Positions 34,158 to 60,184 are shown, counted from the first letter of the stretch. The stretch is DNA of 64,000 nt from Candidatus Spyradocola sp. (GCA_050942925.1 JBMNOF010000001.1:2823-66822), one strand, 5' to 3'. A program made the numbers and translations. Notes: generated by a model not told the origin, from the sequence alone.

Positions 34158-34357
34158 TGCTCCTCCTTCAGCACATCTTCAAACGGCGAGACGGTGATTT
34201 CGACCGTCCCGCCGTTTTCCCGAATGCGCACCGTGCGCGCACTGCCCGTCTTATCCGGGTGCCGCGGTGGGCGCGTCCACTTCACGCGGCAGTTTTCCTC
34301 CCCCAGTTGTTCCAACGCGAGGGACAGGGGCAAGCCCAGGGCGGGATGGACCGTCAT
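34154..34357 (-). CDS. Small hypothetical protein (possibly PASTA-like)
   Basis: 67 aa; ATGA overlaps with both the frr stop and the uppS start. Confidence 0.65.
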
Positions 34358-34911
34358 ACCTCCATGAGCTCCTTTTCCTTCTCCGCGGTGATGGTGTCGA
34401 TCTCCTTGATGATCTTGTCGGTCGCCTTCTGGATCTTGTCCTCGGCGGCCTTCTGCTCATCCTCGGTGATGGTGTTGTCCTTCTTCATCTTCTTGATCTG
34501 GTCATTGGCGTCGCGGCGGATGGAGCGGACCGCGATCTTGCACTCCTCGGCCAGCTTGCGCGTCTGCTTGACGAGGTCCTTTCTGCGCTCCTCGGTCAGC
34601 TCCGGCAGCAGCAGGCGGATGATCTTGCCGTCGTTGGAGGGATTGATGCCCAGGTCCGACTTCTGGATTTCCTTCTCAATGACCTTGAGCATGCTCTGTT
34701 CCCAAGGGGCGATCTGGATGATGCGCGGCTCGGGAATGGAGATGTTGGCCACCTGGTTAATGGGCGTGGGCGAGCCGTAATAGTCCACGAGGATGCGGTC
34801 CAGCAACTGCGGGTTGGCGCGGCCCGCGCGCATGGACGCCAGTTCTTTTCTATAAACCGCCACGGATTTGTTCATCTTCTCCACCATGGTATCGAGAACC
34901 TGCTTGGTCAT
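34354..34911 (-). CDS. frr: Ribosome recycling factor
   Basis: [22 protein letters not shown]. Confidence 0.97.
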
Positions 34912-35035: not shown

Positions 35036-35081
35036 AAAAAAACGCCCCGCACGGGACGCGCAGAGCGCTTGGTGCGGGGCG
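35036..35081 (-). terminator. Rho-independent terminator of the epimerase-hydrolase-ABC operon
   Basis: CGCCCCGCAC/GTGCGGGGCG stem plus T7. Confidence 0.8.
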
Positions 35082-35100
35082 GGTGCAAACGGTTCTTCCC

Positions 35101-36711
35101 TTACTTCCAGGAGAAATCGCGGTACATGAACGCAGAGAACTGCGTGTAGAACGGACCGGGATTCAGGTTGGCGTCGAAGGCGAAGAAGGTCGTCGCGTAG
35201 TAGATCGGGATGTAGGCACGGCACTCGGTGGCCACCTTCATGGCGTTCTGGGTGGAGGCCTCGTCCGTCATCGCGGCAAAGGCCGCCTGCACGTCGGCAT
35301 CGTTGATGCCAGCCAGGTTCAGGCTGGAGCCAGTCTCGTAGAGCTGCGCGAAGGAGCCGAACTGCGAGGTCAGGCCGATGCTGATCATGGCCAGGTCAAA
35401 GTCCTGGATAAAGTAGCGGCTGGAATCCGGCACCTGCTCGATGTTGATCACAAAGTAGGACTGCTCCAGCATCTCCTTCATGATCTCACAACCGGAAACC
35501 CAATCGGGGTAGGCGGACTGCACGATCAGCGTCAGCTCCAGGGGATTGCTCTCGGAGTAGCCAGCCTCGGTCATCAGGGCGTTGGCCTGCTCGACGTCCA
35601 CGGCAACGTGCTCGGCGACGTCCGCGTAGTACTCCACAAGGGGCGTGGCCATGTTGTAGGCCGGGGTGCCGGCATCGCCGCTGGCAATGGTCGCCAGTTC
35701 GTCGATGTTCAAGCAGTGGGCAATGGCGTCACGCACGCGCTGGTCAGAGGTCGGCGTGCCCTCCACGCAGTTGCAAATCAAGAACGCGACGTTGTTGAGC
35801 ACCTGCTCCTGGGTCAGGACATTGTCATACTCCTTGATGATCTGGTAGTTGGAAGCGCCGTACATCGCATAGTCCAGGTCGCCTGCCTCAAACGCGGTCT
35901 CCTGGCTGCCGGTGATGTACTTGAAGTAGATGGTGTCGATGGAAGCGGGCGACCAAGCGTCCTCAAAGCGGGTCAGGGTCACGTCGCCGTTGGCGCTGAT
36001 CTCCTCCACCTTGTAGGAGCCGGTGCCGTCCACGTTCAGGCCCAGGTCTTCGTTGGGGTCGCTGATGATCGTCTCGCAGTAGGACTGGTTGACGATGGCC
36101 ATGGTCTGGATGTAGGGCATCAGGTCATGGAAACCCGCACCCGCACCCGCGCCGGGGAAGGTGAGGGTCAGGTGCGTGTCATCCGTCACCGTGATCTCCA
36201 TCGCGCCCACAAGGACGGAGCACAGCGGAGAGTTCGTGCAGCGGGACAGCGTATATGCCACGTCCTGCGCGGTCAGGATATCGCCAGAGTGGAACTTGAC
36301 ATTGCTGCGAAGGGTGACGTCCACGCTGCCATCCTCATTCTCCACATAGGACTCTGCCAGAGCGCAGACGATGTTGCTGTCGTTGTCCAGGTAGAACAGC
36401 GGGTCGTAGACGTTGACGATGACGTTGTCCTCGGCCTGCTTCATGAAGAGCTCGGGGTCCAGCGTCGTGATCTGGTCAATCAGCGCAACGGTAAAGGAAT
36501 TATCCGCCTGGCCGCTGGTGGTGGGGCGGGTCTTTCCGGAGTTGCCGGTGGTGGGTTCGGCACTTTCCGTTCCCTCATCGGTTCCCGCGCTCTCGGTGGG
36601 CGCGGCGGACTCGTCGCTGCTCGGCGCCTGCGTGCTGGAGCAGGCCGTCAGCGTGCAGAGCGCGACGACCAGCGCCAACAGGAGCGCCAGAATAGATTTG
36701 CTCTTGTTCAT
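35101..36711 (-). CDS. ABC substrate-binding lipoprotein, family 5 (Opp/Dpp-like)
   Basis: LTAC lipobox; TLDP, YDPLF, KFHSGDILTAQDV, GTGSY, RVRDAI; very acidic. Confidence 0.88.
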   Translation of the reverse strand: MNKSKSILALLLALVVALCTLTACSSTQAPSSDESAAPTESAGTDEGTESAEPTTGNSGKTRPTTSGQADNSFTVALIDQITTLDPELFMKQAEDNVIVNVYDPLFYLDNDSNIVCALAESYVENEDGSVDVTLRSNVKFHSGDILTAQDVAYTLSRCTNSPLCSVLVGAMEITVTDDTHLTLTFPGAGAGAGFHDLMPYIQTMAIVNQSYCETIISDPNEDLGLNVDGTGSYKVEEISANGDVTLTRFEDAWSPASIDTIYFKYITGSQETAFEAGDLDYAMYGASNYQIIKEYDNVLTQEQVLNNVAFLICNCVEGTPTSDQRVRDAIAHCLNIDELATIASGDAGTPAYNMATPLVEYYADVAEHVAVDVEQANALMTEAGYSESNPLELTLIVQSAYPDWVSGCEIMKEMLEQSYFVINIEQVPDSSRYFIQDFDLAMISIGLTSQFGSFAQLYETGSSLNLAGINDADVQAAFAAMTDEASTQNAMKVATECRAYIPIYYATTFFAFDANLNPGPFYTQFSAFMYRDFSWK

Positions 36712-36803
36712 TGTGTTTCACCCTTCCATTTCGGATCGAATTTCTGTGCCTGCAACGCCTGCAGGCGCAAATTTCAAAGCGCAATGCGCCTGAAATCCAT
36801 GGT

Positions 36804-37805
36804 TTAGTCGAACAGGTGGCACTTGACGAAGTGGTTCTCCTCGACCGAATGCCACTGCGGCTCCTCCTCGCAGCGCTTCTGCGCGTAGGGACAGCGCCCG
36901 CGGAAACGGCAGCCCTTGGGCGGGTCCACGGGCGAGGGCACGTCGCCCTCCAGGATGATGCGCTGCTTTTTCTGCTTTTCCGCCGCGGTAAAGGCGGGGG
37001 TTGCGGAGAAGAGGGCCTTGGTATAGGGGTGCGCGCGGTTGCGGTAGACGGTTTCCATCGTGCCGCGCTCGACGATCTGCCCCAGGTACATGACGATGAT
37101 CTCGTCGGAGATGAAGTGGATGATGTTCAAATCGTGCGAGATGAACAGATAGGTCAGGCGAAGCTCGTCCTGCAGGTCCTTGAGCAGGTTGATGATCTGC
37201 GCCTGAATGGAGACGTCCAGCGCGGAGACCGCCTCGTCGCAGACGACGAACTCCGGGTTTGTGGCCAGGGCGCGCGCGATGCAGATGCGCTGCCGCTGGC
37301 CGCCGGAAAACTGGTGCGGGTAGTGCGAGGCCATCTCCGGATAGAGGCCGCACATCGACATGAGGCGCTCGACCTTTTCCGCGCGCTCCGCACGGCTGGA
37401 GGCCAGGCCGAAGTTGTCGATGGGCTCGGCGATGATGTCGCCTGCGCGCATGCGCGGGTCCAGCGAGGAGTACGGGTCCTGCCAGACCAGCTGCATCTTC
37501 TTGACGTAGGGGCGGCGCTCCCTTGCGGAAAGCGTGGTGATGTCCCGTCCCTCATAGAAGATCTTGCCGCTAGTGGGATGGTAGATGTCCAGCAGCATCT
37601 TGCCGACGGTGGACTTGCCGCAGCCGCTCTCTCCGACGACGCCCAGGGTCTTGCCCTTGGGCACGCTGAAGGAGACGTCGTCCGCGGCGTGAATCCAGCT
37701 GGTTGGCCGGCCGAGGGCGTCGGATGCGGCCGGGAAGTGCATGGTCAGGCTTTCCGCCTTAAGAAAGTAATTTTCGTCCGTGCTGGTTCGAAACTGCTCG
37801 GTCAC
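36804..37805 (-). CDS. Peptide ABC transporter ATPase (OppF/DppF-like)
   Basis: GESGCGKS, FSGGQRQR, HPYT, C-terminal Cys cluster; GTG start. Confidence 0.92.
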   Translation of the reverse strand: MTEQFRTSTDENYFLKAESLTMHFPAASDALGRPTSWIHAADDVSFSVPKGKTLGVVGESGCGKSTVGKMLLDIYHPTSGKIFYEGRDITTLSARERRPYVKKMQLVWQDPYSSLDPRMRAGDIIAEPIDNFGLASSRAERAEKVERLMSMCGLYPEMASHYPHQFSGGQRQRICIARALATNPEFVVCDEAVSALDVSIQAQIINLLKDLQDELRLTYLFISHDLNIIHFISDEIIVMYLGQIVERGTMETVYRNRAHPYTKALFSATPAFTAAEKQKKQRIILEGDVPSPVDPPKGCRFRGRCPYAQKRCEEEPQWHSVEENHFVKCHLFD

Positions 37806-38812
37806 TGCTCCGCGCCTCCTTCCTTTGCGGTTTTCCGCCAGTTGTGGCAAGCGATGCTGTGGCCGCTGCCCGCCTGCTCAAACTCGGGGAAGACGTCGCG
37901 GCAGATATCGCTGGCATAGGCACAGCGGTTGTTAAAGGGGCAGCCCGCGGGCATATCCCGCAGCGTGGGCACGCTTCCGGGGATGACCTTGAGGCGGTCG
38001 CCGTCGTAATCGGGATTGGGGTGGGAGTCGATGAGTCCCACGGTATAGGGATGGCGGGGCTTGGTGAACAGCTCGTCCACATCCGCCTCCTCGCAGACCC
38101 GTCCGCCGTACATGATGAGCACGCGGTCCGCCATCTCGCTGATGACGCCCAGGTCGTGCGTGATGAAGATGATGGAGGTGCCGATCTCGTGCTTGAGCTC
38201 GTTCATCAGGTCCAGAACCTGCGCCTGGATGGTGACGTCCAGGGCCGTGGTCGGCTCGTCGCAGATGAGGAGCTTGGGCCGGGTGATCAGGGCCATGGCG
38301 ATCATGGCGCGCTGCCGCATGCCGCCCGAGAGCGCGAAGGGATAGGTCTTGAGAATCCGCTCCGGGTTCGGGATCTTGACGCGGCGCAGGGCCTCCAGGC
38401 TCCTGGCGTAGGCCTCGCTCTTCTCCATGCGGGGGTTGTGCACGCGCAGGGCTTCCATGAGCTGGTCGCCGATGGTGAACAGCGGGTTCATGGCGGTCAT
38501 CGGCTCCTGAAAGACCATGGCGATCTCGTTGCCCCGGATGGGCCGGAGCTGCTTGGGCGTCATGTGCAGGAGGTCCTTGCCGTCAAAGAGGATCTGCCCC
38601 GAGGGATAGCGCGTGCGGCTTGCCGGGTTCAGCTGCAGGATGGACATGCAGGTCACGGACTTGCCACAGCCGCTTTCGCCGACGATTCCCAGCGTCTCGC
38701 CCTTGTAGAGGTCGAAGGAGACATGGCGCACGGCGTGCAGAGAGGTCTTCCGATCCATGCGGAAGTCCACCGACAGGTCGACGACCTGCAGCAGCGGTTT
38801 CTTTTCTTCCAT
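37802..38812 (-). CDS. Peptide ABC transporter ATPase (OppD/DppD-like)
   Basis: GESGCGKS, LSGGMRQR, DEPTTALDVT, HPYT, Cys cluster. Confidence 0.92.
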   Translation of the reverse strand: MEEKKPLLQVVDLSVDFRMDRKTSLHAVRHVSFDLYKGETLGIVGESGCGKSVTCMSILQLNPASRTRYPSGQILFDGKDLLHMTPKQLRPIRGNEIAMVFQEPMTAMNPLFTIGDQLMEALRVHNPRMEKSEAYARSLEALRRVKIPNPERILKTYPFALSGGMRQRAMIAMALITRPKLLICDEPTTALDVTIQAQVLDLMNELKHEIGTSIIFITHDLGVISEMADRVLIMYGGRVCEEADVDELFTKPRHPYTVGLIDSHPNPDYDGDRLKVIPGSVPTLRDMPAGCPFNNRCAYASDICRDVFPEFEQAGSGHSIACHNWRKTAKEGGAEQ

Positions 38813-38825
38813 ATGCTCCCTCCTT

Positions 38826-39710
38826 TTATTTCTGGGCCTGGGGGTCCAGCGCGTCGCGCAGGCCGTCGCCCACCAGGTTGATGGACAGCGCCGTCAGCGC
38901 GATGGCAAGGCCCGGGAAGATCGCCATGTAGGGCGCGGTGCGGAAATACTGCTGCGCGTAGTTAAGCATGGCGCCCCACTCCGGGTTCGGCGGCGCAATG
39001 CCGACGCCGATGAAGGACAAGCCTGCGGCCGAGAGCATCATGCTGGAGATGGTCATCGTCGCGTCGACGATGATGGGGTCCAGCGCATTGGGCAGGATGT
39101 GCTTGACGACCAGCTTGAGCGGCTTGGTCCCGCTCACGCGCGCCGCCTTGACGTAATCCTGCTCCACGACCCCGAGCACCACCGCGCGGATGCGCAGCAC
39201 AAATCCCGGAACCGAAACCAGCGTCAGCGTCAGCACCATGTTGAACACGCTGCCGCCCAGCACGGTCAAGAGCACCAGCGCAAGAAGGATCGTCGGCACG
39301 CAGGTGATGACGTCCACCACGCGCATGATGAGGAAATCCGCCTTCTTGGACATGGCGCACACCGAGGCGATGGCCGCGCCGATGACCAGCGAAAGGAGCG
39401 TCGCGCCCACGCCGATGCCCACCGAGATCCGCGCGCCGTAGAGCACGCGCGCGAACAGATCGCGGCCCAGGTTATCCGTACCGAAGGGATGCGCCGCGCT
39501 GGGCGGCTCCAGCCTTGCCTGCGTATCGTAGGCGGTGACCATCTCCTCCGGAACAATCAGGTTGGCCGTGAGGCATGCAAGCAGGATGACGATCAGGATG
39601 ACCCCGCCGATGACAGCCGCGGGGTTTCGCATATAACGCTTGGCGACGTCGGCAAAGAGGCTGCTCCTCCGGCTGCCCGCCATGCGCTTGAATGTTTTCT
39701 CCGCTCTCAT
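38826..39710 (-). CDS. Peptide ABC permease (OppC/DppC-like)
   Basis: HPFGTDNLGRD, DYVKAARVSG, PEWGAML, GDGLRDALDP. Confidence 0.92.
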   Translation of the reverse strand: MRAEKTFKRMAGSRRSSLFADVAKRYMRNPAAVIGGVILIVILLACLTANLIVPEEMVTAYDTQARLEPPSAAHPFGTDNLGRDLFARVLYGARISVGIGVGATLLSLVIGAAIASVCAMSKKADFLIMRVVDVITCVPTILLALVLLTVLGGSVFNMVLTLTLVSVPGFVLRIRAVVLGVVEQDYVKAARVSGTKPLKLVVKHILPNALDPIIVDATMTISSMMLSAAGLSFIGVGIAPPNPEWGAMLNYAQQYFRTAPYMAIFPGLAIALTALSINLVGDGLRDALDPQAQK

Positions 39711-40633
39711 TTCTTGTACCGCGCTCCAATCTTGGGGTCAATCAGGGCATAGCAGATGTCCATGAGCACCATGGCGCACATGAAGATCAGCGACAGCAGG
39801 AACGCACACGTCATGACGACCGGCACGTTCTTTTCATTCACAGCCGTGAGCATGTACATGCCCACGCCCGGGATGGTGAAGATCTGCTCGACGATGACGG
39901 AACCGCCCAGCGTCGAAGCAAGGCCCGTGATCAGGAGCGTGATGATGGGCAGGCACGCGTTCTTGAGCGCATGCTTCCAGATGACCCGCTTTTCGCTGCA
40001 GCCCTTGGCGCGCGCCGTGCGGATGTAGTCCTGCGTCATGGCGTCCAGCATGGACGAGCGCGTCATGCGGCTAAGGATCGGGATGTTGGCAAGAACCAGC
40101 GTCGTCACCGGCATGATGTAAGAGGTAAAGCCCTCTATGCCGAACGATGGCAGCCAGCCCTTGTAGACCGCAAAGAACAGAATCATCAGCACCGCGACGA
40201 AGAACGACGGCACCGAGGCGAATGTCACCGCGAAGATCGTCACCGTCGTATCCAGGAAGGAATACTGCTTGATGGCGCTCAAGATGCCCAACGACACGCC
40301 GATGACAGCCGAAATGCAGAAGGCCCAGGTGCCCACGCGGATCGTCAGGGGGAACCGCGTCGCAAGCTCGGTAAAGACGTTCTCCTGCGAGGTGTAGGAA
40401 AGAACGTTGCCCGTCAGCAGCCCGTGCAGGTAGTTGCCGAACCGCTCCATCAGGCTGCCGGTGAATCCCACGCGCTCGTTAAAGGCGTCCTTGACATCCT
40501 GGGGCGTGGTCATGGGCAGCACGTTGCTGGCGGGATCGCCCGGCGTCAGCGACATGATGAGGAAGATCATCAGGATCACGCAAAACAGCATGGGGATCAT
40601 GTAGAGGAGTCGTTTGACAATATATCGCGACAT
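39707..40633 (-). CDS. Peptide ABC permease (OppB/DppB-like)
   Basis: PGDPA, DYIRTARAKG, KHALKNA, DICYALIDP. Confidence 0.92.
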   Translation of the reverse strand: MSRYIVKRLLYMIPMLFCVILMIFLIMSLTPGDPASNVLPMTTPQDVKDAFNERVGFTGSLMERFGNYLHGLLTGNVLSYTSQENVFTELATRFPLTIRVGTWAFCISAVIGVSLGILSAIKQYSFLDTTVTIFAVTFASVPSFFVAVLMILFFAVYKGWLPSFGIEGFTSYIMPVTTLVLANIPILSRMTRSSMLDAMTQDYIRTARAKGCSEKRVIWKHALKNACLPIITLLITGLASTLGGSVIVEQIFTIPGVGMYMLTAVNEKNVPVVMTCAFLLSLIFMCAMVLMDICYALIDPKIGARYKK

Positions 40634-40651
40634 GAATTCACCGCCCCATTC

Positions 40652-42151
40652 TTACTTTTTGCTGAACCGAATGAGCTTTCCGCCAGGCTCCGTCACAAGG
40701 GGCATGGAGAGCGCGCTCACCTTGCCGCCCACTTCGTCCACATAGAAGTGGACCGGAATTCCGCTGGGCAGTTCGCCCATGATGCCGGAGAGAACAAAGG
40801 TATCGTAGTGGAAGTGCTGAAGCTCGACGTTCGCCCCGATGAAGGCCAGCCGCAGCTTGTCGCCATCCAGGGAGATCTTGACGTCCGTATAGCCCGGCCG
40901 GCCGTAGGTGCCCACGTAGTCCGCCAGCGGGTGCGAAGGCTGCGTGCCCTCGACCTTGTCGCCGGTCATGGCGTGGATGAGCTTCTCGTGGCCGCCCAAG
41001 CGCTCCGCCACAAAGTCGTGGTAGCGGCGCACCCAGTTGCCGCCCGTGACGCCCAGGTAGTGGTCAATGACCTCGCGCGCCAAAGCGTAGTGCAGGAAGG
41101 AGCTGTTCATGTTCGTGTACGCGACGACGCCGAGGTTCAGGTCCGGCACAAAGCAGGTGAAGCCCGAGAAGCCGTTGATGTTGCCGCCGTGCTGCACGAG
41201 CTTGTGGCCGCGGAACATCTCCACCATCCAGCCCAGGCCGTAGCTGCAGAACTCCGTCTCCTCCATGGGCATGTCCAGGGGCGCGCTGAGCAGCATCTGG
41301 GGCTTGTGCAGCTCCTTCATCGCCGCCTCGCTCACGATGCGCTTGCCTTCAAACTCGCCCTGGTTCAGGTGGAGCGTCACCCACTTGAGCATGTCGCTGG
41401 CGCAGGAGTTGATGGAACCGGCAGGGCCGAGCGGCGCGCCGATGCCCTTGGACTTGTCCTCCTTGGGCATGCGGTAGAAGGGAATCTTGCGCATGCCGTG
41501 CAGGGCGTCGTTGGGGTTGGTGCGGTCATAGGGCTCGGCGTGGTTCGCATTGCCCTCGATGTCGTCGACGAACGCGCAGGAGCGGGTCATGCCCAGGGGC
41601 CCAAAGATGTACGCGTCGAGGTTCTCCTCAAAGCTCTTGCCCGTGACGCGCTCGACGATGTAGCCCGCCAGGATGAAGCACTGGTTGTTGTACTGGAACT
41701 TGGAGCGGATCGGCTGATTCGGCTCCAGGTAGCGCAGGTTGTGCACGAGCGTGGCCTTGTCAAAGTCCGTGCCGTACCAAGAGTATTCGTGACGGGGCAG
41801 GCCCGTGCGGTGGCAGAGCAGGTCGCGAAGCGTCACGTTCGCGGTGGTGAAGTCGTCGTAGAAGCGCACCTCGGGCACGTACTTCTGGATGGGGGTATCC
41901 CAATCCAGCTTGCCCTGGTCCACCAGGATCGCCACGAGCGCGGCGGTAAACGCCTTGGAGCAGCTGCCGATCTGGTAGAGCGTCTCCCCATCGGCGGGCA
42001 AGCCCTTTTCCACGTCGCGCTTGCCAAAGCCGCCTGCAAACACCGTCTTGCCGTCCTTTACAATGCCCACGGCGACAGAGGGGCTTTCCCAGAGCTGGAG
42101 GCCCTCCTCCGCCATCTGCCGGAGCGATTCAATAAACTTCTGATCTTCCAT
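40652..42151 (-). CDS. Beta-lactamase/PBP-fold serine hydrolase with DUF3471-like C-terminus (paralog 3)
   Basis: SxxK (GSCSK), LLCHRTGL, YNN, HGGNINGF; no signal peptide. Confidence 0.88.
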   Translation of the reverse strand: MEDQKFIESLRQMAEEGLQLWESPSVAVGIVKDGKTVFAGGFGKRDVEKGLPADGETLYQIGSCSKAFTAALVAILVDQGKLDWDTPIQKYVPEVRFYDDFTTANVTLRDLLCHRTGLPRHEYSWYGTDFDKATLVHNLRYLEPNQPIRSKFQYNNQCFILAGYIVERVTGKSFEENLDAYIFGPLGMTRSCAFVDDIEGNANHAEPYDRTNPNDALHGMRKIPFYRMPKEDKSKGIGAPLGPAGSINSCASDMLKWVTLHLNQGEFEGKRIVSEAAMKELHKPQMLLSAPLDMPMEETEFCSYGLGWMVEMFRGHKLVQHGGNINGFSGFTCFVPDLNLGVVAYTNMNSSFLHYALAREVIDHYLGVTGGNWVRRYHDFVAERLGGHEKLIHAMTGDKVEGTQPSHPLADYVGTYGRPGYTDVKISLDGDKLRLAFIGANVELQHFHYDTFVLSGIMGELPSGIPVHFYVDEVGGKVSALSMPLVTEPGGKLIRFSKK

Positions 42152-42191
42152 TTTGCCATTCTCCTTGCCGCCAGCGGCGAATCCGCTCGCA

Positions 42192-43670
42192 CTATTTCGT
42201 AAAGACGATGGGCTTGAGGCCCTTTTCGCTGCCGAGCATCACCGACAGCGTGGAAATCTCGCCCTTGGGGTCGGCCGCAAACGTGAGGGTCAGGCCCGCG
42301 GGCAGCTCGCCAATGGAGCCTTCCGTTGCAAAGGTATCGTAGTGGTGGTGCCGCAGCCCCACGCAGAAGGAGTTGAAGTCCGCGGTGAGCGCGCCGTCCT
42401 TCTCCTCGATGCGGAAGCGGCGGTAACCGGGCGCCTCATAGGTCCCGGCGTAGTCCTTGAGCGCGTGCGAGGGCTTCGTGCCCGGCACGGGCGTGCCGCC
42501 GAAGGAGGCGAAGAAGGAGACCACGTGGTCGAACATCGCCTGGTTGTACGCCTTCATGCGCTCGTACCAATTCCCGTCCGTGGCGCCCAAGGCCTTGTCC
42601 ACGGTCTCCTGCACGATGGCGTCGGCAAGCAGCGTGACGTTCATGTTCGCGCTGACGAACACGCCCAGGTTCAGGTCCGGAACGATGGCCGTGGAGGAGG
42701 TAAAGCCGTTGATGTTGCCGCCGTGCTCGAGCATCTTGTGCCCGCGGTAGCTGTACAGGCTCCAGCCCAGGCCGTAGGAGGTCATGGCGCGCTGGGGGCC
42801 GTAGGCGCCGCCATCGCCCGTATCGATGTGGGACGAGGCGATCAGATCCATCAGGTCCTCGCGCACGAGCTGCACGTCCCCGACCTTGCCGCGGTTCAGG
42901 TTAAAGCGCAGCCACTTCTCCATGTCCGCGGCGCAGGAGCAGATGCAGCCGGCCGCGGCGGTGGGGTCGCCAACCATTTCCTCGGCGCTCTCCGCCGGGG
43001 AGCGGTAATAGGGGATCTGCCGGATGCCCGTCATGGTGTATTCCTTGTCGTGGTCAAAGGGCAGGGCGGCGTTGTCGGCCGTGCGCATGGCCTCCATGTA
43101 CGTCTCGCTCCGCTCCATGCCCAGCGGCAGCAGGAGCTCTTCCTTGAGGAAGTCCTCAAACTTCTTGCCGCTGACCGCCTCGATGACGGCGCCGGCGATG
43201 AGGTAGTTGAAGTTGCTGTACTGGAAGCGGTAGCGGATGGGCGCGCTCAGCGGCAGGTCCTTGAGGTTCTTCATGAGCTGCTCGCGGCTAAAGCCCGTGC
43301 CGTACCAGGCGTACTCGTGCCGGGGCAGGCCGCTGCGGTGGCTCAGGAAGTCGCGCAGCGTCAGGTTTTCGGTCGCGTAGCGGTCGTTAAGCCGGAAGGC
43401 CGGCAGGTACTCGATGACGGGGGTATCGAAATCCAGCTTGCCCTGCGTGGCCAGCACGGCGGCCGCCGTCGCGGTAAAGGCCTTGGTGCAGCTGGCGATC
43501 TGGTAGAGGGTATTTGCGTCTGCGGGCCGGTTGGCGTTGTCCCGCATGCCGATGCCGTCGCAGAGCAGGGTCTTGCCGTCCTTGACCACGCAGATCGAAA
43601 GCGAGGGCACATCCCAATTCTTGGCCTGCTGTGCGGCTTCCGCGCGCAGGTCCTTCGAAAAGTCGTTCAC
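42192..43670 (-). CDS. Beta-lactamase/PBP-fold serine hydrolase with DUF3471-like C-terminus (paralog 2)
   Basis: ASCTK, LSHRSGL, YSN, HGGNINGF; GTG start; no signal peptide. Confidence 0.88.
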   Translation of the reverse strand: MNDFSKDLRAEAAQQAKNWDVPSLSICVVKDGKTLLCDGIGMRDNANRPADANTLYQIASCTKAFTATAAAVLATQGKLDFDTPVIEYLPAFRLNDRYATENLTLRDFLSHRSGLPRHEYAWYGTGFSREQLMKNLKDLPLSAPIRYRFQYSNFNYLIAGAVIEAVSGKKFEDFLKEELLLPLGMERSETYMEAMRTADNAALPFDHDKEYTMTGIRQIPYYRSPAESAEEMVGDPTAAAGCICSCAADMEKWLRFNLNRGKVGDVQLVREDLMDLIASSHIDTGDGGAYGPQRAMTSYGLGWSLYSYRGHKMLEHGGNINGFTSSTAIVPDLNLGVFVSANMNVTLLADAIVQETVDKALGATDGNWYERMKAYNQAMFDHVVSFFASFGGTPVPGTKPSHALKDYAGTYEAPGYRRFRIEEKDGALTADFNSFCVGLRHHHYDTFATEGSIGELPAGLTLTFAADPKGEISTLSVMLGSEKGLKPIVFTK

Positions 43671-43702
43671 GTTGCTTCCACCTTTCTCCTTCGCGTTCGA
43701 AC

Positions 43703-45190
43703 TCAGCCCTCGACCTTGGTGAAGATCTCGTCCTTTGCGGCGGGATTCATCACGATGCCAAAGCGGATGTCCGCGACCTTGCCGTTCTTGCCCGTCTCAA
43801 AGGAGAAGGTCATGCCGTTGAACAGCGCGTGCGCATCGTCGATGCGGAAGGTGTCGTAGTGGAAGTGGGTGAGCGGGCTCACCTTCTTATTATAGGTAAA
43901 GGTCAGGCCGCCGTCCTTTTCCGCGATGACGATGTCGCCGTAGCAGGCGTTGCGGTAGGTGCCGGCGTATTCGGCCAAGGCGTGCGTGGGATGGGTGTTG
44001 GGCACCGGATCGCCGTTCATGCCCTTCATCTGGTCCACAACGGAGCCAAAGACCTCGGAGACAAAGCCGCGCAGGCGGTTCTGCCAGTCGCCGCCCGTGA
44101 CGCCCAGGTAGCTGTCGATGATTTCATAGGTGGTGGCGTAGGTATCAAAGGAGTCGTTGAAGTTGACCAGGCTGACGATGCCGAGCTTCTGGTCCGGCAC
44201 CATGGTCACCAGCGCCGTAAAGCCGTTGATGTTGCCGCCGTGCTCGACCATCTTGTGGCCGCGGAAGGTCTCCGTAAACCAGCCCATGCCGTAGGAGTAG
44301 AAGTCCATCTCCGCAAAGTCCGTCAGCAACGGCTCGCTCAAGAGCATCTGGGGCTTGTGCAGCTCCTTCATGTTCGCCTCGGAGACGACCTGCTTGTCGC
44401 CGACCTTGCCGTTGTTGAGGTTGAACTCGACCCACTTGAGCATGTCGGTCACCGTGGACATGATGGAACCGGCGGGGCCATAGGGCGCGCCGATGCCCTT
44501 TGCGCGGTCCTCGCGGTCGCTCTTGAGGAAGGGAACCTTGACCACGCCCGTAAGGTCCGTGGGAATGGGGCGGTCATAGGGCTCGGCGTGGTTGGGATCG
44601 CCGGCGATGTCGTCGACGTAGAAGGTGGTGCGCGTCATGCCGATGGGCTCGAGCAGGTACTTGCGCACGAAATCCTCCCAGGTCATTCCGGACAGCTCCT
44701 CGATGAGCATGCCCACCGCGACAAAGCAGGTGTTCTGGTAGCACCAATGCGAGCGGAAGGACCAAGCCGGCTGCATGTTGCGCAGGTTTTCGACCATCTC
44801 GCGGCGGGTGCAGGGGCCGTCGATCCAGTAGGCGTCATGCCGCGGCAAGCCCGTGCGGTGGCAGAGCAGGTCGCGGGTGGTGGCGTGATAGGTGGTAAAG
44901 GGGTCCATAAAGCGGATCCAGGGCAGGTACTCGATGACGGGGGTATCCCAGTCGAGCTTCCCCTGGTCGACTAGCACCGCGGCCGCAGCCGCCGTAAAGG
45001 CCTTGGAGCAGCTGCCGATCTGGTAGAGCGTATCCGCGTCCGCCTTGCGGCCGGCTTCCACATCCGCATATCCAAATGCCTCGCACAGCTCGATCTTGCC
45101 GTCCTTGACAACGCCCAGGGCCATGGAAGGCTGGTCCCATGCCTTGAGCTCCTTTTCTACATTTGCCTTCACTTGATCCAGTGCATGCAT
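43703..45190 (-). CDS. Beta-lactamase/PBP-fold serine hydrolase with DUF3471-like C-terminus (paralog 1)
   Basis: GSCSK, LLCHRTGL, YQN, HGGNINGF; no signal peptide. Confidence 0.88.
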   Translation of the reverse strand: MHALDQVKANVEKELKAWDQPSMALGVVKDGKIELCEAFGYADVEAGRKADADTLYQIGSCSKAFTAAAAAVLVDQGKLDWDTPVIEYLPWIRFMDPFTTYHATTRDLLCHRTGLPRHDAYWIDGPCTRREMVENLRNMQPAWSFRSHWCYQNTCFVAVGMLIEELSGMTWEDFVRKYLLEPIGMTRTTFYVDDIAGDPNHAEPYDRPIPTDLTGVVKVPFLKSDREDRAKGIGAPYGPAGSIMSTVTDMLKWVEFNLNNGKVGDKQVVSEANMKELHKPQMLLSEPLLTDFAEMDFYSYGMGWFTETFRGHKMVEHGGNINGFTALVTMVPDQKLGIVSLVNFNDSFDTYATTYEIIDSYLGVTGGDWQNRLRGFVSEVFGSVVDQMKGMNGDPVPNTHPTHALAEYAGTYRNACYGDIVIAEKDGGLTFTYNKKVSPLTHFHYDTFRIDDAHALFNGMTFSFETGKNGKVADIRFGIVMNPAAKDEIFTKVEG

Positions 45191-45229
45191 CGTATTCCCC
45201 TTCTTTCCGTAAAGTCCGTTTCTGTCTTC

Positions 45230-46309
45230 TTAAATGTCCATGTCGATGCCAAGGCCCGGCTTGTCCAGCAGCGTAAAGACGCCGCCCTTACGGTCGAAGC
45301 CGCCCGGAATGCCGTCGTCATCTCCCTTGTAGAACATGAAGCTGTCGCAGTCCGCCTCGACGATGGCCTGCTTTGCCGCAACCAGGCTCACGCCCGCGGT
45401 GATGCTGATCTTGTTCTCCTGCATGCAGCCGACCATGCACTGCACGCCGGCGCCCTGCGCGATGTCCGCAATCTGCGCGCCGGTGTAGAGGCCGCCGCAC
45501 TTCATCAGCTTGATGTTGAAGTAATCCGCGCAATGGAGCTTGGCCGCGCGCTGCGCGTCATAGGGCGTGTGGATGGACTCGTCCAGCATGAGCTTGACGC
45601 CCGTCTTGTTCTTCTTCATCAGCTCTGCCGCGCCGTCAAAGTCCCACCAGGGCAGGCACTGCTCGACCGCGTCGATGTGCAGCGCCTCGAACTTGGGCAG
45701 GACCTCCAGGGCGGTGTCCACGGTGTAGCCCTGGTTGGCGTCCACGCGCAGGCGGATGTCGCTGCCGACGGCCTCGCGGATGAGGGTCAAAGCGCGGATA
45801 TCGTCCTCCGGGTTGATGCCGATCTTGATCTTGAGGATGCGGAAGCCCTTTTCAAAGACAAAGCGCTTGGCCGCGGCCTGCATCTTTTCGGGGGTGTCGA
45901 TGCCGATGGTGATGTCGTTGTGGACGACCGGATTCGTGCCGCCGAGCACCTTGTAGACCGGCAGGTTCTTCTTCTTGCCGATGATGTCGTACAGCGCGAT
46001 GTCAAAGGCGCACTTGGCCGAGCCGTTGCTGTAGATGATGCTGTCCATCAGCTTGTGCGCGCCGGCGATATCCATGGGATCAAAGCCGATGAAGGCCTGG
46101 GCGAACATCTTCATGACGGTGTAGCACGTCTCCATCGTCTCGCCCGTGACAAAGCCCAGGGGCGCGGCGGAACCCAGGCCGTAAATGCCCTCGTCCGTCG
46201 TGATCTTGACCGTCCAGCTGTCGGAGTCCTCAATCACGCCAAAGGCGACGCGGAAGGGCTCGGAGAGCGGCGCGGAAAACTTTTCAATTTTGACGTCGGT
46301 AATTTTCAT
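45230..46309 (-). CDS. Dipeptide epimerase (L-Ala-D/L-Glu epimerase-like, enolase superfamily)
   Basis: KIK catalytic motif, DANQG, EQ, DES metal ligands, NIKLMKCGG, DCD (DxD). Confidence 0.88.
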   Translation of the reverse strand: MKITDVKIEKFSAPLSEPFRVAFGVIEDSDSWTVKITTDEGIYGLGSAAPLGFVTGETMETCYTVMKMFAQAFIGFDPMDIAGAHKLMDSIIYSNGSAKCAFDIALYDIIGKKKNLPVYKVLGGTNPVVHNDITIGIDTPEKMQAAAKRFVFEKGFRILKIKIGINPEDDIRALTLIREAVGSDIRLRVDANQGYTVDTALEVLPKFEALHIDAVEQCLPWWDFDGAAELMKKNKTGVKLMLDESIHTPYDAQRAAKLHCADYFNIKLMKCGGLYTGAQIADIAQGAGVQCMVGCMQENKISITAGVSLVAAKQAIVEADCDSFMFYKGDDDGIPGGFDRKGGVFTLLDKPGLGIDMDI

Positions 46310-46460
46310 AGTAATGTACCCCCGTATTGTTCGCTCTCTCGTATCTTTGTTCGGAGCGGAAGAATCCTGCATATTCTGTATATTTGGGGTTCTTTCCGCG
46401 GCTTCCAAAATACGGTCGAATTCACCCCCTACCTTTCAGTAGGAGTTTTACAATGTTCTT

Positions 46461-46489
46461 ATCATATAGCAATCGAATTCATTTTGCAA
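46461..46489 (-). promoter_or_regulatory. sigma-A promoter of the epimerase operon
   Basis: TTGCAA-17 bp-TATGAT in an AT-rich intergenic region. Confidence 0.6.
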
Positions 46490-46523
46490 GACGAACTTGT
46501 TTATCATGCAAAAAACTCTATGT

Positions 46524-46576
46524 AAAAGAACGGAGATTTCGGTGCATCCCCCTCCTTGGGCGCACCGAAATCTCCG
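46524..46576 (-). terminator. Terminator after the CE7 esterase gene
   Basis: 15-bp perfect stem CGGAGATTTCGGTGC/GCACCGAAATCTCCG plus TTCTTTT. Confidence 0.8.
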
Positions 46577-46625
46577 CATTTCGACCGAATATATGCAGGT
46601 ACTTCCTATTCTTGAATTGTTTGGT

Positions 46626-47606
46626 TCATTTCCCGCCCTTTGGGGCGTCCAGGATGCCGCTCTGCCGGATGAAGCGAATCTCGCGCTCGACGTGGGTGGC
46701 GCGGGCGCCGTCGTGCTCGTTAAAGGGATAGACGACGATCTGCTTTTCGGAGCGGATGCGGTTATAGGTGGCGTAATAGCAGAGCGCGGGGCAAACGGGG
46801 TCGGCCAAGCCCACCGAGGCAAAGACCTTGGCCTGGATGCGCTCGGCCATGTTCATCGTGTCAAAGTAGCTCAGCGTCTCATAGACGCGCTCGAGGTTGT
46901 CGGGGTAGGCGCGCAGGTAGTCGTTGACCGAGGTGAAGGACCCGTGCCGGTGCTCGATGCGGTACTCGATGTTGCTGTTGCTGGGCACGTTGACCAGCGC
47001 GAGCTTCACGCGCGCATCCAGCGCCGAGACGGCCATGCCCAGCGCGCCGCCCTGGCTGGTGCCGCGCACGAAGAGGCGGTCGGCGTCGATTTCGGGGATC
47101 GTCTCGAGGAAGTCCAGGGCCTTGAGGCAGTCCATGTACACCGCGCGGTAATAGTATTCCTCCTTGTGGAGCACGCCCTTGCTGCCCACGTTCGTGCACA
47201 TGCCGCTGTCCGTGTAGTGGGCGCAGTTTCCGGTGATGCCACCCTGTTCCCGGCAGTCGATCGCCAGCACCGCGCAGCCGAGCAGGGCGAAGGCCATGTG
47301 GTCCGAGGGCACGCCGCGGCTGCCGCCAAAGCCGTGGTACTGCACCATGCAGGGATAGGGCGCCTGCTTCCGAAAGGTCGGCAGGATCAGCCAGCCGTGG
47401 ATGCGCGTCTGGTCAAATCCGCAGTAGGAGACGTCGTAGACCTCCACGGCGTCGATGGGGTAGTCGACCTTTTCCACGATCGGCGCGAGCGGCACGGCCT
47501 TGGTCTGTGCGATCGTGCTCTCCCAGAATTCGTCAAAGTCCGGGCGGCGCGTCAGCGGCGGAAGGTAGGCCTCCAGCTCCGCGATCTTGCTCTGCAAAAA
47601 ACTCAT
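46626..47606 (-). CDS. CE7 acetylxylan esterase/cephalosporin-C deacetylase family
   Basis: PDFDEFW, YHGFGG, GTSQGG nucleophile elbow, LSYFD, GLADPVCP. Confidence 0.88.
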   Translation of the reverse strand: MSFLQSKIAELEAYLPPLTRRPDFDEFWESTIAQTKAVPLAPIVEKVDYPIDAVEVYDVSYCGFDQTRIHGWLILPTFRKQAPYPCMVQYHGFGGSRGVPSDHMAFALLGCAVLAIDCREQGGITGNCAHYTDSGMCTNVGSKGVLHKEEYYYRAVYMDCLKALDFLETIPEIDADRLFVRGTSQGGALGMAVSALDARVKLALVNVPSNSNIEYRIEHRHGSFTSVNDYLRAYPDNLERVYETLSYFDTMNMAERIQAKVFASVGLADPVCPALCYYATYNRIRSEKQIVVYPFNEHDGARATHVEREIRFIRQSGILDAPKGGK

Positions 47607-60000: not shown

Positions 60001-60184
60001 GCCGTTTACAGCGTACCTTTCTACGCATAGTTCCGTTTTGTTGTATTTATACAGAAATATAAATAAAGTTATCCGGAAAACAATTCTTCCTTGTATTTTT
60101 CCGAAAAATTTACATTAGAAAAATGTTCTTAATTCTATCTTTATACCTATGGCGCAAATATTAACAAACTGTTTATATACATGG

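Follow-up and report, generated by a model that had tools for sequence, protein, structure and literature searches.

What pathway is encoded where a dipeptide epimerase gene, three paralogous serine hydrolase genes, and a complete oligopeptide-type importer follow one another on a single strand? The locus that raises this question, referred to here as the cassette, occupies positions 35,101 to 46,489 of a 64,000-nucleotide stretch of DNA (the window) from Candidatus Spyradocola sp. (GCA_050942925.1 JBMNOF010000001.1:2823-66822). Guts are rich in peptides containing D-amino acids, among them cell-wall debris and non-ribosomal peptides, which withstand ordinary peptidases; to our knowledge, their consumers and the routes by which they are used are poorly known outside E. 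coli and Bacillus. We propose, with a probability of roughly 0.55, that the cassette is a self-contained, horizontally exchangeable catabolic unit for short D-amino-acid peptides, which provides for their import, trimming, and epimerization.

According to this proposal the lipoprotein binding protein and the OppBCDF-type transporter would carry peptides with D-residues into the cell, where three anciently diverged, catalytically intact peptidases of family S12, each with a C-terminal lipocalin-like barrel and a specificity of its own, would trim them in the cytoplasm. The epimerase would then act on the remaining L-D dipeptides, inverting their C-terminal residue and thereby opening them to ordinary housekeeping dipeptidases, which could complete the cleavage. 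The dipeptide in which the pathway ends is probably not the classic muropeptide L-Ala-D-Glu, because the epimerase does not appear to be of the L-Ala-D/L-Glu type. Read in this way the cassette constitutes a compact, testable pathway for D-peptide use. It contributes three unstudied, predicted cytoplasmic S12-lipocalin peptidases, at least potentially of the D-specific kind that is sought as tools for biocatalysis and peptide analysis, as well as a dipeptide epimerase of probably non-Glu specificity.

Conserved linkage and presence or absence as one block

The features of the cassette, in the order of transcription, are the following.

46461..46489, minus strand: candidate sigma-70-like promoter, TTGCAA-17 nt-TATGAT, agreeing with the consensus at 9 of 12 positions
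46310..46460, minus strand: leader of about 150 nucleotides (nt) between the promoter candidate and the epimerase start, as read from the sequence
45230..46309, minus strand: dipeptide epimerase of the enolase superfamily, 359 amino acids, with Gly at the position of YkfB Arg24 (Pfam MR_MLE_N and MR_MLE_C)
43703..45190, minus strand: HydA, 495 amino acids, predicted cytoplasmic S12 serine hydrolase with a C-terminal lipocalin-like barrel, clade A (PF00144 and DUF3471)
42192..43670, minus strand: HydB, 492 amino acids, paralogue of HydA, clade B (PF00144 and DUF3471)
40652..42151, minus strand: HydC, 499 amino acids, paralogue of HydA, clade C (PF00144 and DUF3471)
39707..40633, minus strand: OppB/DppB/NikB-type permease (BPD_transp_1 and BPD_transp_1_N)
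38826..39710, minus strand: OppC-type permease (BPD_transp_1 and OppC_N)
37802..38812, minus strand: OppD-type ATPase (ABC_tran and oligo_HPY)
36804..37850, minus strand: OppF/DppF-type ATPase (ABC_tran and oligo_HPY)
35101..36711, minus strand: family-5 solute-binding lipoprotein, 536 amino acids, of a cassette-specific subfamily (SBP_bac_5; lipobox LTAC)
35036..35070, minus strand: intrinsic-terminator-like hairpin with a T-run at the end of the cassette (stem 35070-35040, 14 pairs, 8 of them G-C)

The nine open reading frames (ORFs), first listed as 35101-46408 and all on the minus strand, show a high G+C content at third codon positions; the overall G+C content of the window is 64%. From their coordinates the spacing ranges from a 4-nt overlap to a gap of 92 nt. 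An earlier note, made from the DNA sequence alone, had described nine co-oriented genes with short gaps in this order, and the ORFs and their Pfam domains bear out that description.

The gene content is conserved well beyond the window. A scan of public genomes with an alignment of the three hydrolases matched 359 stretches, 264 of them coding for a relative; from the best 80, 66 loci were obtained, all of whose ORFs were scored with the window's proteins. Twenty-one of these loci (L019-L035, L040-L042, and L046) are of the cassette type. They derive from metagenome-assembled genomes (MAGs) of gut, rumen, or faecal Clostridia, the closest to the window being those from Candidatus Spyradocola and other Christensenellaceae, and their hydrolases are 42-84% identical to HydA by tblastn. 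Fourteen carry three hydrolase copies, three carry two, three carry four, and one has a single copy; in addition, L032 and L035 possess two epimerase copies each. In 17 of the 18 loci with visible upstream DNA (contig ends remove it in L025, L027, and L034) the hydrolases are directly preceded by the epimerase, and the genes for OppBCDF and the binding protein follow the hydrolases in 19 of the 20 loci with visible downstream DNA, which is cut in L027. Synteny had been set beforehand as a refutation test of the earlier proposal, and its outcome was favorable.

The other 45 loci, from Pedobacter, Scytonema, Acidobacteriota, Chloroflexota, and other groups, contain a single hydrolase (32-40% identical to HydA) with neither an epimerase nor an Opp set alongside, and most of these ORFs measure about 570-610 amino acids, being extended at both ends. 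The solitary cyanobacterial homologues of Scytonema and Brasilonema (L036-L039) are about 480 residues long and have no N-terminal extension, and for this reason may share the cytoplasmic location of the cassette enzymes.

The flanks of the cassette vary from genome to genome. It is bordered by adk-map on one side in L033 and L040 and by rpsM-rpsK on the other side in L033, by carB and the gene of a HIT protein in L024, by a MatE transporter and an esterase in L029, by a methyltransferase and a PfkB kinase in L031, and by frr and an AXE1-family gene in the window; in the genome G002 it adjoins frr as in the window, according to the coordinates. Among 40 relatives of the window's genome, the hydrolase is found in five of seven members of the same genus, in none of 12 from other genera of the family, and in none of 21 from other families of the order. 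One cassette-free member of the genus (G001, 97% complete) has the gene order CdsA-UppS-Frr-AXE1-Band7-YbaK-EPSPS, with frr adjoining AXE1. DNA alignment with this genome reveals an extra block of ~11.6 kb in the window, at about 35036-46640, which includes the promoter candidate and the terminator; similarity ends at about 35035, just past the latter. Since G001 lacks exactly this block, the cassette, the promoter candidate, and the terminator are present or absent as one piece, a difference compatible with gain and loss alike. Such clean presence or absence between species of one genus offers a natural comparison.

The cassette is rare. When 400 genomes were sampled evenly across the class, 23 had an epimerase match at E<=1e-50, and a match of more than 60% identity occurs solely in the window's genome. 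One locus (L041) stems from a record labeled Alloprevotella sp.; its layout and match scores are nearly the same as those of L040 and L042 from Clostridia MAGs, and it is probably a mis-binned contig rather than evidence of a Bacteroidota carrier. Beside the cassette with one hydrolase and two epimerases, L035:3160-7439 holds the gene of another family-5 binding protein, accompanied by OppCDF genes of its own, together with that of a 734-residue protein carrying an ADP-ribosylglycohydrolase domain.

Three S12 hydrolases with a lipocalin-like barrel

HydB and HydC are 41% and 49% identical to HydA, and all three belong to peptidase family S12, matching PF00144 with E values of 1e-61 to 1e-69. 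S60-x-x-K63, Y151-x-N153, and H317-G-G are invariant in the three proteins. Because the N-termini are hydrophilic and the catalytic Ser is already found at residue 60, the enzymes are considered to be without a signal peptide. The three paralogs of about 495 residues that had been announced with intact SxxK/YxN/HGG motifs and no signal peptide are thus confirmed, at 492-499 residues. The idea that some of the paralogues serve as pseudo-enzyme subunits was rejected, since all 69 aligned rows retain S60, K63, Y151, N153, H317, and G319.

These 69 rows, comprising 59 cassette copies and 10 solitary homologues as an outgroup, were also used for phylogenetic analysis by a quick IQ-TREE search under LG+G4, with branch support given as the SH-like approximate likelihood ratio (SH-aLRT) only. 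Excluded were L041, which hardly differs from L040 and L042, fragments with fewer than 400 aligned positions, and 35 of the 45 solitary loci. All cassette copies fall into one clade (SH-aLRT 99), within which are found clade A (18 rows, SH-aLRT 100), clade B (19 rows, 100) with its sister group B' (3 rows, 100), and clade C (19 rows, 97). Group B' supplies the fourth hydrolase copy, being the second hydrolase gene of L022, L023, and L024, and its members carry HSG or HNG in place of HGG in the third catalytic motif. From this clade structure we conclude that the triplication is older than the spread of the cassette and that each copy has been retained since. Sixteen columns are at least 85% conserved within each clade yet differ between clades. 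The sole three-way clade-specific column is the middle residue of YxN, which is Q in A, S in B, and N in C; residues 59 and 150, which adjoin the catalytic Ser and Tyr, also differ. These active-site signatures suggest that A, B, and C differ in specificity.

HydA was modeled with AlphaFold2 on a 34-row alignment. The resulting model (mean predicted local distance difference test score, pLDDT, 94.8) consists of the S12 domain, linking helices, and, at residues 405-492, a short helix followed by eight strands, the region of the barrel that Pfam labels DUF3471. By sequence, Pab87 of Pyrococcus abyssi (2qmi, E 5e-33) is the best relative of solved structure; ClbP, IS11, Flp, and others come next. 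Foldseek likewise placed two-domain enzymes at the top, namely 2qmi, the IS11 esterase (7spn), and the DL-peptidase Lip3, with SurE, the D-aminopeptidase 1ei5, and Ulm16 as further two-domain matches and 9sn1 among the top entries. The alignment of 2qmi to the model runs across both domains (515 alignment columns), which identifies the C-terminal domain as lipocalin-like; the root-mean-square deviation (rmsd) of 13.8 Å over both domains indicates that their relative orientation differs. As a family-level prior, the D-stereospecificity suggested in the earlier note is consistent with the nearest solved relatives, which are Pab87, ClbP, the D-aminopeptidase DAP, Lip3, and SurE. The AmpH and PBP4B models are also among the NCBIfam matches of the hydrolases, below cut-off.

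The assignment is to the S12 family rather than to CubicO in the strict sense. The CubicO-specific motifs YAEAF/L, FFYLN, and C-terminal ERY are defined in section 5 of PMC2651629, and none of them is kept in HydA, HydB, or HydC. HDAYW/HEYAW/HEYSW and WCYQN/FQYSN/FQYNN are found at the aligned positions, and FTKVEG, FTK, and FSKK take the place of ERY at the C-termini. We have therefore filed the hydrolases as S12-lipocalin enzymes of Pab87-like build.

Prediction of a HydA homodimer gave a score of 0.67 (runs 0.66, 0.70, and 0.67), compared with 0.00 for the best control; of the proteins solved as pairs 20 of 30 attain this mark, and of those solved as single chains 1 of 23. The runs have at least 96% of their contacts in common, with a partner pLDDT of at least 93, and the predicted interface is symmetric, involving residues 82, 98-107, 144-147, 280-283, and 296-313. 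The head-to-tail contact that is the main one in Pab87 is not recovered. The prediction supports self-association of HydA, and may reflect its likeness to solved related oligomers.

Epimerase, importer, and the probable substrate

The epimerase has its best PDB match in 3jva, the dipeptide epimerase of E. faecalis (E 3e-70; 39-40% identity), followed by 2p88, an N-succinyl-Arg/Lys racemase of B. cereus, and the dipeptide epimerases of C. hutchinsonii, B. subtilis (YkfB), and M. capsulatus. Its AlphaFold2 model (pLDDT 94.8) superimposes on 3jva with a Foldseek TM score of 0.95-0.97 and an rmsd of 1.3 Å. The set of two bases and metal ligands, K160-x-K162 (strand 2), K267 (strand 6), and the D/E/D ligands D190, E216, and D243, is present in 24 of 24 aligned sequences, as is D320-x-D322, which occurs as D320-C-D322 in all 12 cassette copies. 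The D-x-D motif holds the N-terminal ammonium of the dipeptide. In the alignments with PDB sequences it is seen in the four dipeptide epimerases 3jva, 3q45, 1jpm, and 3rit and is missing in the racemase 2p88; a dipeptide substrate is therefore favored. The catalytic bases of YkfB are K162 and K268 (PMC5808125).

The residue at position 24 bears on which dipeptide this might be. Arg24 of YkfB binds the Glu side chain. At the corresponding position 11 of the 12 cassette epimerases have Gly and the twelfth has Ala; Gly is also present in 3jva. The NCBIfam AEE equivalogs match the cassette epimerase with 201 bits against a cut-off of 500, and with 84 against 343. A second epimerase of the same genome, on contig C142 (L085:10037-11131), is 38% identical and has the YkfB-like sequence PFKTALR, which includes Arg24; with TspO and HAD genes as neighbors, it is situated where the contig ends, and its truncated context is uninformative. 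In the class sample PFKTALR is found at 12 of 22 epimerase loci, all of them at most 40% identical to the cassette copy, and the six epimerases nearest to the latter (43-60% identity) carry Gly or Ala. Among those six loci, which extend 1.5 kb to each side, L090 adjoins a HydA-like gene, and L086 (a weak match) and L091 adjoin genes of Opp-type ATPases. Related enzymes act on a variety of dipeptides: T. maritima TM0006 epimerizes L-Ala-D/L-Phe, -Tyr, and -His (PMC5808125, PMC2948282), and the PDB titles of related epimerases name D-Ala-L-Val and L-Arg-D-Lys as bound ligands. On these sequence grounds the enzyme of the cassette is a dipeptide epimerase whose specificity is probably for residues other than Glu.

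This finding bears directly on the possibility that the locus serves classic stem-peptide recycling, in which the hydrolases, as DD-carboxypeptidases, DD-endopeptidases, or D-aminopeptidases, would trim muropeptide stems and L-Ala-D-Glu would be epimerized as in ykf/ycjG. Pab87 removes the terminal D-Ala from GlcNAc-MurNAc-pentapeptide, and its authors propose muropeptide scavenging (PMC2651629); ykfA-D adjoins dppB-E in B. subtilis (PMC2954226); the AmpH and PBP4B matches point in the same direction, and the carrier genomes come from gut, rumen, and reactor samples, which are rich in cell-wall debris. We nevertheless regard this route as unlikely. A Gly24-type epimerase (Gly or Ala in 12 of 12 copies), together with a canonical Arg-type paralogue elsewhere in the genome, speaks against it, the PFKTALR form being found instead on the C142 paralogue and on Clostridia homologues at 35-40% identity. 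Moreover, domain scans located no NlpC/P60, MpaA, or LD-carboxypeptidase gene in or beside the cassette, which leaves the gamma-D-Glu-diamino-acid bond without an obvious hydrolase. The muropeptide-stem version of the earlier proposal is weakened accordingly.

With two permeases, two oligo_HPY ATPases, and a family-5 binding protein, the importer is of the Opp/Dpp/Nik type (PepT family); the OppBCDF-like genes and binding lipoprotein recognized previously are upheld by the domain set and by the lipobox. The best NCBIfam models are Opp2B, a nickel permease, for OppB (270.8 bits; cut-off 350), Opp4C for OppC (262.5; 350), and Opp5A_nikA for the binding protein (99.5; 600). Nickel-type models thus head the matches of OppB and the binding protein, and peptide-type models those of OppC, OppD, and OppF; since every match is below its cut-off, no equivalog-level assignment was made. 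The relatives of the binding protein in the PDB are all distant, beginning with S. aureus NikA (1e-16) and continuing with Lmo0135, GsiB, DppA, and AppA.

Taken at face value, these matches would fit a transporter for nickel or a metallophore whose neighboring enzyme genes are unrelated passengers, a reading in which Opp2B, Opp5A_nikA, and S. aureus NikA all have a part. We consider it very improbable. The matches fall far short (270.8 of 350 and 99.5 of 600 bits; E 1e-16), the transporter is found with the hydrolases and the epimerase at various sites in different genomes, and neither NikR nor a nickel-enzyme gene is found nearby.

At its N-terminus the binding protein has a lipoprotein signal, which closes with the lipobox LTAC and is followed by a low-complexity linker. 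A homologue search in a large protein collection, which was word-based and gives counts that are a floor, found at least 86 proteins at 41% identity or more and then a drop to five at 27-32%. So narrow and sharply bounded a subfamily fits a specialized ligand, and the ligand of this matched binding protein would name the substrate of the cassette.

The same narrowness accords with the uptake and cleavage of one specific non-proteinogenic amide or ester, for example, a peptide antibiotic, a siderophore-like molecule, or a lactam, with the S12 enzymes acting as esterases, amidases, or ring-openers in detoxification or salvage. The structural neighbors of HydA include the IS11 esterase, the lipopeptide-cleaving Lip3, the prodrug peptidase ClbP, and the cyclases SurE and Ulm16, and a cassette that is rare, as judged by the epimerase in 1 of 400 class genomes, would suit such a role. 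It is difficult to reconcile, however, with the linkage of a dipeptide epimerase with full D-x-D in 17 of 18 loci, which indicates free dipeptides as intermediates, nor is a resistance regulator or efflux gene conserved beside the cassette; we judge this explanation to be decidedly unlikely.

Catabolism of short D-peptides is the reading that we prefer, and several observations weigh against it. A D-peptidase in the cytoplasm would have to spare the cell's own pools of D-Ala-D-Ala and UDP-MurNAc-peptides. An esterase (IS11, 7spn) and the peptide cyclases SurE and Ulm16 likewise have the two-domain S12 build, the CubicO-specific motifs are missing, and the predicted HydA interface involves the catalytic domain only, without the lipocalin residues that make the main contact in Pab87. 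On the transporter side, the best models for OppB and the binding protein are nickel-type, though far below their cut-offs. Finally, two loci depart from the common layout: L026 has hydrolases and a transporter without an epimerase within its 14 kb, and L032 has no downstream transporter and shows weaker Opp-like genes upstream.

A more detailed version of the D-peptide reading can be offered tentatively. As a laterally moving cassette, the locus might give a few lineages of gut Clostridia private access to D-residue peptides other than L-Ala-D-Glu, such as fragments of non-ribosomal peptides or fragments with D-Ala or D-aromatic residues. Enzymes A, B, and C would then make successive, non-redundant cuts, possibly as a mixed oligomer, and an epimerase of new specificity would close the pathway.

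The genes of the cassette are presumably co-transcribed. Among the sequencing runs listed for the stretch there was no RNA run containing it, but 24 DNA or unclassified ones, of which one, perhaps the source sample, contains most of the stretch. The sigma-A promoter of the earlier note does exist as a site (TTGCAA-17-TATGAT), but sites of this type are no commoner in the region than chance would have it (2 found, 2.6 expected), so that 46489-46461 is a plausible promoter; the proposed terminator is a strong hairpin with a T-run, as described. The epimerase ORF as listed opens at TTG 46408, and a Met lies 33 codons later at ATG 46309. Translation most likely begins at the latter, because all solved homologues align from that Met and the ATG is preceded by a GGGGG ribosome-binding site. 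The true start of OppF probably lies downstream of 37850, since the alignments to its family start at about residue 22 and the ORF as listed extends over the end of OppD.

A riboswitch or leader RNA was considered and rejected: no Rfam family reaches its gathering score anywhere in the window, and the leader at 46310..46460 gave none at E<=1 except one chance-level miRNA match. A CodY box, considered by analogy with the dpp operon of B. subtilis and searched for with its customary consensus, was likewise rejected, no site within 3 mismatches being present near the cassette; the single CodY-box-like site of the window, at 60095, is within chance expectation.

None of the flanking genes at the window locus is related to peptide metabolism. 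Downstream of the cassette are frr, uppS, cdsA, dxr, rseP, ispG, and polC, and upstream are the genes of an AXE1-family esterase, a Band-7 protein, and a YbaK-type editing protein. The AXE1-family (acetyl xylan esterase) gene, at 46626-47606 on the minus strand directly upstream of the cassette, is also present in the cassette-free G001 and is therefore not part of the block. No pyrH precedes frr (34354-34911) in the window or in G001; the usual order in Firmicutes is pyrH-frr-uppS-cdsA, which is broken upstream of frr in this genus.

Comparison with known systems

Among solved structures Pab87 is the best match of the cassette hydrolases in both sequence and fold. Both consist of an S12 domain (SxxK, YxN, HxG) and a C-terminal eight-stranded lipocalin barrel; Pab87 is cytoplasmic, as HydA-type enzymes are predicted to be, and adjoins a dipeptide ABC transporter, just as the cassette hydrolases adjoin an Opp-type importer. 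Pab87 prefers D-Ala-p-nitroanilide to the L-Ala substrate (kcat/KM 3.92 and 0.06 M-1 s-1, respectively), and its gene lies near those of a D-aminoacylase and a dipeptide ABC transporter; the scavenging of environmental D-peptides was proposed (PMC2651629). It forms an octamer (D4) in which the lipocalin domains close an inner proteolytic chamber (PMC2651629); the prediction for HydA covered a homodimer. The two are also distinguished by an identity of about 20%, by the three CubicO-specific motifs missing in the cassette hydrolases, by domain orientation, and by their surroundings: Pab87 has a D-aminoacylase and an aminotransferase as neighbors, while the cassette has three to four specialized paralogues and an epimerase.

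The cassette and the B. subtilis dpp-ykf system have a common logic, which is to import, trim, and epimerize. DppA is an M55-family D-aminopeptidase. The dppA-E/ykfA-D genes resemble the cassette in combining a Dpp/Opp-type importer, cytoplasmic peptidases for D-bonds, and a dipeptide epimerase of the enolase superfamily (PMC2954226, PMC5808125), and DppA is named as a D-aminopeptidase in PMC2651629 as well. Their peptidases are unrelated, however, the LD-carboxypeptidase YkfA and the NlpC/P60 endopeptidase YkfC being found where the cassette has three S12-lipocalin enzymes. YkfB, too, differs, being of the Arg24 type and specific for L-Ala-D/L-Glu, whereas the cassette epimerase is of the Gly24 type. 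In this respect the latter resembles 3jva of E. faecalis V583, which we take to be specific for Xaa-Tyr dipeptides and which has the same fold, catalytic set, and Gly at position 24. Fold and catalytic set are also common to the dipeptide epimerases for substrates other than Glu from T. maritima (TM0006), C. hutchinsonii, and M. capsulatus.

The same S12 fold and motifs, along with documented cleavage next to D-residues, characterize DAP of O. anthropi, ADP of B. cereus, Lip3 and Lip7 of Pseudomonas, and ClbP. ADP, Lip3/Lip7, and ClbP work outside the cytoplasm, in some cases on particular natural products, in contrast to the cassette hydrolases, which lack a signal peptide and are linked to an importer.

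Among the matches listed in the literature searched, none describes this combination of genes, and in part of this search none of the listed papers combines "dipeptide epimerase" with a D-peptidase term. The earlier note's statement that no operon of this composition had been characterized therefore holds for the parts list; it does not extend to function, since close functional analogues have been published (PMC2954226, PMC2651629). The cassette is a variation on the theme of the B. subtilis dpp-ykf genes and of the Pab87 neighborhood with a new parts list, which comprises S12-lipocalin paralogues, a Gly24-type epimerase, a private subfamily of binding proteins, and movement as one block.

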